In this document: positions 7,529 to 10,500 of the stretch, piece after piece
Position numbering within the stretch: the first letter of the stretch is position 1
Layout of the letters: each line of letters opens with the position of its first letter
Origin: Bacilli bacterium
Lineage (GTDB): Bacteria > Bacillota_I > Bacilli_A > RF39 > UBA660
Length of the DNA: 64,000 nt
Assembly (NCBI GenBank): GCA_016293205.1
Contig: JAEDES010000001.1
Span: 27,447-91,446, forward strand
Direction: 5' to 3'
Position numbers and translations under genes: made by a program
The notes under the pieces: generated by a model
Databases searched by the model: none
Seen by the model: the letters and a program-made list of their open reading frames with translations, nothing else
What the model was told of the DNA's origin: nothing

Positions 7529-10500
7529 TTAGTTCATACTTGGTAAGTCACTACTATTTACAGCTTGATATTTTTCTCCTTCATCTTCATCTGCAATTGC
7601 AGCTGTTTCTGGTTGGAATGCATATTCATCTGTTGGTAATAAGTAATCACTTTCTTCAAGTTCATTTTCATAAGATTCAGTATTTAGAGCTAATTCTGCA
7701 GCGTCTTCTTCTTCCCACTCATCAGCTTCTAATTCTTCTTCTTCATCTTTATTTTCTTTACGTTCTAAGTATGCTTTTGTTCCAAGTCCTGCAAGAGCTG
7801 CTGCTCCAAGACCTGCCATTAATGGAATCATGTTGTTATCTTTTGTATTTACCCTAGTTCTAATTGGATCTGCGCTTGTTGGAATATTAACGCCTTCAGC
7901 TAAATCAATGATTTCTCCTAATCCTGTAGCTTCACCAAATTCTTCAGTTAATGATGAGAAGTTACTATCTTCTCCTCCTGGAAGAACGTCGTTAACTAGA
8001 TTATCTCCTGTTGGATAATCTGGTTTCCAGTCATCATCGTCATCAGCAGTATCATCATCATTATCTGTGTCAGTGTCTGTATCAGTATCTGTATCTGTAT
8101 CTGTATCTGTATCTGTGTCTGTATCTGTGTCTGTATCTGTATCTGTGTCTGTATCAGTATCTGTGTCTGTATCAGTATCTGTATTTGTGTCTGTATCAGT
8201 ATCAGTGTCTGTATCTGCTGGTGGAAGTCCTTCATCAGGATCTGATGGTGGCCATGTAGAATCATCATCTCCTCCACCTGTTGGACAAACACATGGATTT
8301 TGACCACATACTGGACATACTTCTGATGGACAAACGCATGGGTTTTGACCACATGTTGGGCAAACTAGATCTGTTGTACTTTGTTCATTTATACAACTTC
8401 CATCACACTCAAAGCTTCCACAATATGGACAATGTGGTTTTTCTTCTTGTTGGTCAAATATTTCATTAACTTTTTCTTCAATTGCTTGTTGTTCTTGAAC
8501 ATTTTCTCTAATGTCTTGTGCTATTTCACTTCCAACGATAGCAGTAGCATGTCGTCCAATTCTTTGTCCTGCTCCGGCAACTGGGAATTCATCAGCTACA
8601 TCAAGTGTTGTATCAATTACATCATCAATTAAGTCTGTACCATAACGAGCAGTTACTGATTCTTCAGCCATATTTCTAACATATTGTTCACCAACATCAT
8701 ATTTATGAGCATCATCAACACTTTCTAATGCTTCTCTTACTGCATCATCAATTTTGTCATCCATTGTATCTAAAACTTCTTTAGTAGCTTTATCACGAAT
8801 TAAATCTTCACCTTGTTTTAATAAATCTTCAGGATCTGTTGCTCTAACAATATCGTCAACACGAGATGTTGTTTTTTCTGTAATTTCCTTTCCAATTAAT
8901 TCTCCAGCTTTTTCGGATGCTTCTTGTGCTGCTTCTTTTTCTGCAGTTTCTCTTGCTATAGACCTTCCTTGTTCTAGAATATCATCAGTAGGTGTTCCTT
9001 GAACTGCTTTATCTCCTTCTTCTTTTGCAAGTTTTTCTAGGACGTCATCTCCTTCTTTTTGAGCAAGTTCACGAGCTTCTTTTTCTGCAGCATCTTTAAA
9101 TGTTTTTTCTCCTGCATTTTGTAAAGCTTCTTCTCCACCTTGTTTTAGTGCATTTTGTACTGCATTTTCTCCTGCTTCTTTTACAGCTTCTTCAGTGATT
9201 TCTTGTCCTGCTGCTTGGGCAGTTTCTCTTGCTGCTAATTCAGCTTGTTCTCTAATTGCTTGTTCTCCTACATTTCTTAGTCCTTCTGGTCCTAATTCTT
9301 CAAGAGCTTGTTGAACAGCTTTTTCTCCTTGTTCATGTGTATATTGTTCAATCATTTCTTCAGCATGTTCTCTTGCGTATGCTTTATAGTTATTTTCAGC
9401 AGATTCTCTAATTGCATTTTCTCCTAATTGTTGAAGTTGTTCTTCTGTTGCATTTTGAACTGCTCTTTCTCCAGAATCTTTTACATATCTTTCAATGATT
9501 TCATCTGTATTTTGCATTACTTCTTCCATAACTTCTTTTCTTGCTGAGTTATAGATTGCTTCTTTTCCTGCTGCTTGGATTTGTTCTTCTGTTGCATTTT
9601 TAATTGCTTGTTCTCCAGCTTCTCTAGCTTGTGCTTCTAAGGATTCTGTTACCATTTCTTTAGTTTGTGTAGTAATGGCTTCTTCACCTAGTTCAATAAT
9701 TCCTTTTTCTCCAACTGCTGCTACTGCTCGATCTCCACCTTCTTTAATTGCTTTTTCTAGAAGTTTGTTATCTTTAGCCATTTGTTGGAAGGCTTTTTCA
9801 CCTTGTTCTCTAATTGATTTTTCTGCTGCTTCTTTAATTTGAGTTTCAGTTGCATCTTTTAGAGCTTGCTCTCCAGCTTCCTTAATTCCTTTTTCTGCTG
9901 CTTCCATCGATGCTTTTTGAGCAGCTTCATTAATTGCTTTTTCTCCAAGTTCATTAATTGCTTTATTTCCTGCTTTTTCAATTGCTTTATCTGATGCATG
10001 TTTAACAGCTTTATCTCCAGCTTCTTTTAATACTTTTTCTGAAGCTCCTTGTGCTGCTTCTTTTGCTTGTTGTTTTATTACTTTTTCTCCGGCTTCTTTT
10101 ACGGCTTTTTCTGAAGCTTCTTGTACTGCTTTTTCTCCAGCTTCTTTAATAGCATCTTCTGTTACTTCTTTTCCTGCTCTTTCTGCTGATTCTTTAAATG
10201 CTTTTTCAGCTGATTCTCTAATTGCTTTTTCTCCGGCTTCTTGAACACCTTCTTTTCCGGCTTTCTTTGTAACTTCTCTTGCAGCTTTTCTTGCGGCTTT
10301 GTTTGCTGATTCTTGTGCTGCTTTTTCTGCTTGCTCTCTAATTGCTTTTTCTCCGGCTTCTTTTGTTGAGTTAATTCCAGCTTCTTTTGCAGCTTTTTCT
10401 CCGGCTTCTTTAATTTGAGTTTCAGTTGCTTCTTTTACTGCTTTCTTTCCTTCTTGTTTTGCTGCTTTTTCTGCTGCTTCTCTTGCAGATTTTTCTCCGG

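Follow-up and report, generated by a model that had tools for sequence, protein, structure and literature searches.

The window analyzed here is a 64,000 nt stretch of contig JAEDES010000001.1 (assembly GCA_016293205.1, Bacilli bacterium), and our subject is a short tandem repeat within one of its genes. The host gene, located on the minus strand at 7529-11908, is a 1459-aa open reading frame (ORF) of an undescribed family, of which full-length near-identical copies are present in two other metagenome contigs, L006 and L007. The repeat tract occupies 8060-8215 on the minus strand and consists of 26 in-frame hexamers (GAYACN) encoding residues D1232-N1283; of these, 24 specify Asp-Thr, one (AATACA) Asn-Thr and the last (GATAAT) Asp-Asn. 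It is likely that this tract is an in-frame coding microsatellite, which specifies a disordered, acidic and Thr-rich spacer and is polymorphic in length between strains.

The plus strand of the tract reads GTATCT/GTGTCT/GTATCA nearly without interruption over ~8060-8217, and Tandem Repeats Finder (TRF) placed an array of period 6 at 8062-8217 (26.0 copies, 82% matches, zero indels, score 207). Identity at a lag of 6 nt reached 124 of 150 positions in the tract, which is the maximum of the window, whereas 100 whole-window shuffles averaged 69 and never exceeded 79. The periodicity is far beyond chance. The initial annotation had proposed an in-frame hexanucleotide repeat coding for a Thr-Asp spacer, and the TRF array, the frame of the ORF and the lag-6 shuffles bear this out. 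Its description of the repeat as perfect is wrong, as the TRF match is 82%, the exact periodicity runs for ~32 nt at the longest, and there are five unit types, almost all of which are distinct at synonymous third positions only. Read in the Thr-Asp register, residues 1243-1284 are encoded by ACAGAT (11 units), ACAGAC (five), ACTGAT (three), ACTGAC (one) and AATGAT (one). Two Asn-containing units exist (AATACA and GATAAT) rather than the single Asn-Thr unit previously noted, and no 27-mer occurs twice in the window allele.

Acidic runs flank the tract on both sides, DDD on one and DDDTADDDDDW on the other. The latter is encoded immediately C-terminal of the tract (8021-8059, minus strand), where TRF detected a period-3 array at 8031-8065. 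The 85-residue stretch from 1212 to 1296 contains 38 Asp and 27 Thr, with a net charge of -38.

Copies of the locus in other samples were retrieved by looking up the identical 109-aa DUF4176 protein encoded next to the host gene; neither the 1459-aa protein nor its L006 or L007 allele had an exact database match. The allele set comprises three independent metagenome assemblies from different sequencing runs, which are ~99.9-100% identical over 7-11 kb. L005 (run SRR12268564) has 26 units and is 100% identical to the window over 11,570 nt; it is probably the same strain. L006 (SRR30938806) has 25 units and 15 mismatches to the window in 11.3 kb. The unit missing from L006 is a GATACA within the longest perfect run, which fits the prediction for slippage. 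L007 (SRR27829841) has 23 units plus three unit-type substitutions, all within the tract, and zero substitutions relative to the window in the 7.2 kb outside it. The chance of all three substitutions landing in 156 of 7,265 aligned bases is ~1e-5.

One SNP in L006 is the sole difference among the alleles in the 4.4-kb host gene outside the tract, and the 24-nt repeat array of the same gene is constant in length in the window, L005, L006 and L007. The ORF stays open in all alleles, at 1459 aa with 26 units, 1457 aa in L006 and 1453 aa in L007. Thus, the length variation between strains that had been anticipated does occur (26, 25 and 23 units, not one identical number), and the tract has the head-to-tail units, variable unit number and preserved frame of a coding microsatellite or in-frame variable-number tandem repeat. 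L004, one contig from a metagenome-contig scan, begins inside the C-terminal module, ~85 nt downstream of the tract, and is therefore uninformative on tract length.

The only other indel in the alignment of L007 with the window lies in an intergenic poly-A run (~12288-12295) upstream of the ribosome-binding site of the DUF4176 gene. The window and L005 have A7 here, and L007 and L008 have A8; L010-L014 have one 1-nt gap each somewhere in this region, possibly the same change.

Host protein and its family

The host protein has no Pfam domain, and searches of Pfam and NCBIfam gave no real family assignment, the matches being either compositional (FAM25, SdrC/SdrD/ClfA) or sub-threshold (SseC / type III translocon). 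Its N-terminus, MSDYLEFSYNEAKV..., contains neither a hydrophobic signal nor a signal peptide. Profile and AlphaFold analyses delimited an N-terminal family domain of residues 1-290 (11039-11908, minus strand), which comprises a ~95-residue helix-turn-helix hairpin with a conserved Gly45 and, beyond it to ~residue 270, weakly hydrophobic Gly/Ala-rich helices with an EGFLTGFE motif. The AlphaFold2 (AF2) model of this domain is all-helical with a predicted local distance difference test score (pLDDT) of 67; it matched no fold in the PDB (best E 0.59), and a PDB profile search with the family profile returned low-complexity or coiled-coil matches only.

TRF and translation revealed ~40 copies of a KEAGEKAx octapeptide, encoded by 24-nt repeats, in a long helical Lys/Glu/Ala-rich region (9855-11050, minus strand), where the array shows higher-order periods of 72, 96 and 144 nt. 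The repeat bodies of relatives are entirely unlike KEAGEKAx, for example KEGAGEVVEHVGQEGTELIV or GAEEAGQGLMRQ. C-terminal of the octapeptide array there is more helical Glu/Lys/Ala-rich sequence, and upstream of the acidic linker are three Cys-knuckle motifs, CPYCGSFECDGSC, CPTCGQNPCVCP and CPVCGQNPCVCP, at residues 1159-1209 (8282-8434, minus strand). These motifs are of the CxxC-x4-C-x-C type, and two of the three read CP[TV]CGQNPCVCP. The relatives P0008 and P0009 have one CxxC...CxC motif at the corresponding position. This segment may be a small metal-binding or disulfide element.

The conserved C-terminal module of residues 1290-1459 (7532-8041, minus strand), defined by profile search and AF2, contains an EIID..VNIPTS..PI motif, a Gly/Ala-rich membrane helix and an acidic tail ending in ..YQAVNSSDLPSMN. 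Hydropathy and AF2 predict a single membrane helix, MIPLMAGLGAAALAGLGTKAYL, at residues 1360-1381 (7766-7831, minus strand), and in the AF2 model of the last 310 residues the only helix of at least 10 residues is this membrane segment (1367-1385). The acidic tail spans 79 residues from L1381 and has a net charge of -26. With the family alignment, AF2 models the tract as coil (pLDDT 41-49).

A word-indexed protein search with the N- and C-terminal parts found eight relatives, mostly cut at the repeats, and a genome-contig scan found one distant locus in a metagenome-assembled genome. A profile of the C-terminal module matched 318 representatives of 50% identity clusters at E≤1e-3, including 147 at E≤1e-10; judged from these matches, the undescribed family comprises at least 318 clusters at 50% identity. 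The module sits at the C-terminus in nearly every profile match, non-fragment proteins being ~500-1570 residues long, and conservation within the family is highest at the C-terminus. At least 50 collected proteins match the profile of the window protein's N-terminal domain at E≤1e-3.

Other sequences stand at the position of the tract in these relatives. P0008, a complete relative of 531 aa, has the same N-terminal domain, one Cys knuckle, PTE/PTEQ repeats and the same C-terminal module, while P0007, encoded on a syntenic 34-kb contig, has PT/TPVPTSTQSQG repeats at the tract position between the same family modules. The linker types among homologues include PT, PTE, TTPxV, NT and (DDTT)n. In the 150 residues upstream of the C-terminal module, the commonest residue is Thr in 68 of 139 representatives, Pro in 25, Ser in 17, Gly in 10, Asn in nine and Asp in three, and a low-complexity, mostly Thr/Pro/Ser-rich segment is present at the linker position in essentially all 139. 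Among the 156 family proteins compared, no dipeptide run is as long or as regular as the window's (DT)26; those of the others have at most five units. Indels of repeat units, e.g. of one TN unit, likewise distinguish other family members from their cluster-mates. The (DT)n segment alone, used as a query, gave one low-complexity match (E 9.5e-4), and no relevant publication on Thr-Asp, TD or DT repeats turned up in a literature search.

A sister lineage (L020, L021, L026 and L027) carries the linker (DETIT)n(DDTVY)n(DDTSY)n...(DDTT)n, the copy numbers of which vary between assemblies. The window is ~92% identical in nucleotide sequence to these contigs from position 1 to ~8048; upstream of ~8048, which includes the rest of the big gene and the accessory genes, identity is ~71% or the sequences are unalignable. 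This break in identity lies beside the D/T linker, which thus falls at the edge of a swapped cassette. The N-terminal domains of the (DT)n and (DDTT)n alleles are 46% identical. An origin of the (DDTT)n alleles in the same species was rejected, since the ~92% identity of the flanks indicates a sister lineage.

In some lineages two family genes stand in tandem, and each has accessory genes of its own. In L029 (10001-16877), two such genes of 780 and 879 aa are each followed by a DUF4176 gene, and the 3′ end of another family copy lies upstream in L020 (3-980) and L021 (1-1074).

Gene neighborhood

A DUF4176 gene of 109 aa (11948-12277, minus strand; PF13780, E 3.8e-21) lies 39 nt upstream of the host gene and belongs to the "small" class. 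DUF4176 genes also adjoin family members in L002, L003, L017, L020, L029 and L030. Further upstream, the ORF list and profiles define five small helical ORFs of 123, 92, 98, 92 and 91/111 aa (12322-14215, minus strand), which make up two paralogous pairs of WXG100-like size and one 123-aa protein; this arrangement is kept upstream of family members in other lineages. The pair encoded at 13081-13377 and 13880-14155 on the minus strand shares a central GL[AQ]GTAG (L-x-G) turn motif, and that at 12780-13058 and 13574-13852 on the same strand ends with AED[RT][KR]EL. The small proteins have a hairpin layout, yet gave no significant Pfam or NCBIfam match; their profiles align over the full length to Staphylococcus aureus EsxA and to EsxB with non-significant E values of 0.2-0.45.

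A cotZ-like spore coat gene (14451-14846, plus strand) is divergent to this module, and its adjacency is conserved. The set of cotZ, small helical genes, big gene and DUF4176 gene occurs in at least five lineages (the window, L002, L017, L029 and L030), the DUF4176 gene being placed before or after the big gene depending on the lineage. In every lineage examined cotZ is divergently adjacent to the module, and L030 has a different downstream backbone. This adjacency may point to a link with sporulation.

Downstream of the host gene lies a 489-aa gene (5951-7420, minus strand) with sub-threshold matches to GH76, GH127 and GH88, which are of the (alpha/alpha)6-barrel type. It is present in L006, L016 and L020-L028 and absent in L004 and L017, where a 140-aa gene directly follows the big gene. 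Its homologues in L021, L022, L025, L027 and L028 carry a "faint" LANC_like flag, and by eye the 489-aa protein has no WCxG or CHG motifs. An (alpha/alpha)6/LanC-like enzyme acting on the Cys/Thr-rich segment is a weak candidate function for this gene, given the faint matches and its absence from close relatives.

The other window ORFs scanned have housekeeping functions (e.g. mreCD, spoIVF-like proteases, rodA, prsW and tRNA synthetases). A 794-aa ORF (23330-25714, minus strand) has no Pfam family and weak hints of a C-terminal zinc ribbon; ORFs of similar length (779 aa in L017 and 796 aa in L029) occupy its syntenic spot upstream of radC-mreCD, a match in length and position only. Two further tandem repeats were observed, one with a 42-nt unit (43386-43486; 2.2 copies, 98% match) in a 514-aa ORF without a Pfam family (42589-44133) and the other with a 12-nt unit (55391-55461; ~4.6 copies) in the ORF at 55197-55886. 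Both look in-frame.

The initial annotation called the host protein LXG-like. DUF4176 proteins (Ltc) are chaperones of the LXG toxins exported through type VIIb secretion (T7SSb) and bind a disordered amphipathic segment (amphipathic helix) of the toxin (PMC12478183). As at LXG toxin loci (PMC12478183), small helical genes and a DUF4176 gene in the window immediately precede the gene for a large protein, which has a helical domain at its N-terminus and long disordered regions. Unlike LXG toxins, the window protein ends with a conserved membrane module in place of a polymorphic toxin domain; we found no combination of such a domain with a downstream immunity gene, and the directly downstream gene varies in presence. 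The LXG profile (PF04740) matched neither the host protein (E≤0.01) nor 10 relatives (E≤0.001) nor 37 N-terminal domains from the host protein and 36 relatives (E≤1), and no LXG chain appeared in the PDB profile search or the fold search with the N-terminal domain. Thus, the gene context, with its DUF4176 gene and upstream small helical genes, agrees with the LXG-like label, and the profile tests do not. The locus resembles a type VIIb effector locus and may be one. Binding of the DUF4176 protein to the tract itself was considered and rejected, since (DT)n cannot form an amphipathic helix such as the one described as the binding site. A literature search yielded no link of this protein family to T7SS, WXG100 and clostridial spores.

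Interpretation of the tract

The occurrence of unrelated low-complexity linkers at this position in homologues, together with the predicted coil, identifies the tract as a disordered, fast-evolving spacer between modules, of which the family keeps the presence and the hydrophilic Thr-rich character but not the sequence. In the proposed mechanism, a spacer of ~52 residues of (Asp-Thr)n would join the body of helical repeats and Cys knuckles to the conserved C-terminal module. Replication slippage or misaligned recombination between hexamer units would change the unit number, and because the unit is two codons, each gain or loss would stay in frame. The outcome would be alleles that differ in spacer length only, with no on/off switch. 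The linker would serve as an extended hydrophilic tether, whose composition (Thr with acidic residues or Pro) probably matters more than its exact sequence or length. The host protein itself may be handled like a type VIIb secretion substrate, because a DUF4176 chaperone gene and WXG100-like small genes adjoin it.

Several points weigh against this account. The independent alleles number three, all of them on contigs of short-read metagenome assemblies, and there may be within-sample heterogeneity or a rare assembly error at the tract. The range of 23-26 units is narrow and could be neutral. The topology is uncertain: the protein lacks a signal peptide, its hydrophobic segments are weak (Kyte-Doolittle 1.1-1.4) and the charges on either side of the membrane helix are ambiguous, so that the linker may lie inside or outside the cell. 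The link to type VII secretion comes from gene context, as the searches gave no LXG match and no significant WXG100 match, and neither EssC nor another T7SSb core gene nor an FtsK/SpoIIIE-type ATPase is present among the ORFs scanned in the 64-kb window.

It is possible, though on balance doubtful, that the variation is neutral, the tract being an unstable and indifferent low-complexity insertion whose unit number drifts without effect on the protein. Such drift would suit the small spread of alleles, the wholly different sequence of the equivalent segment between relatives, and a codon pattern that appears unremarkable (an impression, without statistics). However, the mostly Thr/Pro/Ser-rich segment is retained in essentially all of the 139 representatives, and D/T richness is common to the (DT)n and (DDTT)n alleles, divergent as their N-terminal domains are. 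Moreover, nearly all differences between units are synonymous, which points to selection for Asp-Thr at the protein level.

A less probable explanation, and an unlikely one overall, is that the tract is an O-glycosylated stalk, with Thr decorated as Ser is by SdgA/SdgB; glycans would then protect against proteases and set surface properties, and the unit number would set the glycan load. PT- and Thr-rich linkers are frequent sites of O-glycosylation in secreted Gram-positive proteins, and the predominance of Thr in about half of the family linkers (68/139) suits this explanation, as do the glycoside-hydrolase-type barrel matches of the 489-aa gene. SdgA and SdgB have the GT-B fold, and SdgB modifies a minimal DSD motif (PMC8561734). 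The window also contains a GT2 gene (PF00535; 591-1649), the only glycosyltransferase among the ORFs scanned, which the initial annotation offered as a lead. This lead is unsupported: the module contains no glycosyltransferase, and the GT2 gene is 6.4 kb from the tract with seven unrelated genes between, lies within a conserved housekeeping backbone that is shared with L017, whose linker is Pro/Thr-rich, and is not recorded at that position in L021, which has a D/T linker. As a distant backbone gene of another fold class than SdgA/B, it was rejected as a dedicated modifier of the tract, and the SdgA/B-like glycosyltransferases that had been suggested for a search are not found near the tract among the window ORFs scanned. 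The 489-aa gene, for its part, is missing from L004 and L017, and all its matches are below threshold. Judged from its composition, glycosylation of Thr is plausible, with no support from gene linkage.

Slightly less probable still is a wider reading, in which the host family represents widespread non-LXG type VIIb-like substrates of spore-forming gut Clostridia, built from a hairpin-membrane-active domain, a stalk and a conserved C-terminal anchor, with a small DUF4176 protein as their chaperone and with genetic coupling to the spore-coat gene cotZ. Here, a WXG-like hairpin would be fused to the Gly/Ala-rich domain, followed by a variable repeat body and a hypervariable Thr-rich stalk; the repeat body would be displayed from the cell or spore surface at a distance set by the length-polymorphic, O-glycosylated (DT)n stalk.

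We regard it as very improbable that the counts of 26, 25 and 23 are an assembly or sequencing artefact caused by collapse or mis-joining of the repeat. Every allele does come from short-read metagenome contigs, and related contigs often break in or beside repeats (the start of L004; N gaps in L002 and L009). However, no 31-mer recurs within any allele, and not even a 27-mer in that of the window, so that a de Bruijn assembly at k=31 follows a single path and repeat collapse is an unlikely source of the differences. In addition, the alleles come from three different runs, the substitutions in L007 are not creatable by collapse, and analogous differences in copy number are found in independent assemblies of the sister lineage. 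Finally, a phase-variation switch, in which slippage would turn expression on and off as at the classic contingency loci with short coding tandem repeats, is refuted by the 6-nt unit and by alleles that differ by multiples of 6 nt and leave the ORF open.

In-frame coding microsatellites in low-complexity linkers are nothing unusual, and the tract is one of them, here with real allele differences between almost clonal strains. It is usable as a strain-typing marker for this pig-gut lineage and illustrates why short-read assemblies break at the locus. Of greater value is the undescribed family, which lacks a Pfam model and whose genes form a conserved module together with DUF4176, WXG100-like genes and cotZ. 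If the host proteins are type VII substrates, the known effectors would extend beyond LXG proteins into spore-forming gut anaerobes.

Comparison with known repeat proteins

The SD repeats of staphylococcal Clf/Sdr proteins, with which the tract had been compared, resemble it in form. Both have Asp at every second position with a hydroxy amino acid between, both are imperfect short repeats at the DNA level that encode a disordered and highly acidic region, and both serve as a spacer of strain-variable length between a functional body and a C-terminal anchor (PMC3794999). The parallel thus stands for form and length polymorphism. It does not extend to membership of the Sdr/Clf family. In the window protein the repeat is Asp-Thr, with Thr replacing Ser; the NCBIfam models of SdrC, SdrD and ClfA align to residues 1232-1290 only, scoring 16-18 bits versus cut-offs of 1150-2500. 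There is no Sec/YSIRK signal peptide, searches of Pfam and NCBIfam gave no Ig-like A domain or other adhesin domain, and no LPxT[GASN] motif occurs anywhere in the protein, whose anchor is instead a membrane helix with an acidic tail of ~79 residues. Also unlike the Sdr/Clf systems, there is no GT-B enzyme of the SdgA/SdgB type near the tract, and the organism is a pig-gut spore-former with 27.7% G+C.

The "PT box" linkers, including those of the relatives, share with the tract the same position between modules, richness in Thr, a repetitive structure and indels between close relatives. The window tract differs from them in being a dipeptide repeat, (DT)26, which lacks Pro and is very strongly negatively charged. 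The Thr-Gly repeat of Drosophila period is likewise a Thr-X dipeptide repeat with an imperfect hexanucleotide array as its coding sequence, and in-frame alleles of different length occur in nature. Although it belongs to a eukaryotic protein unrelated in sequence and function, it is the closest formal analogue of a Thr dipeptide microsatellite such as that described here.

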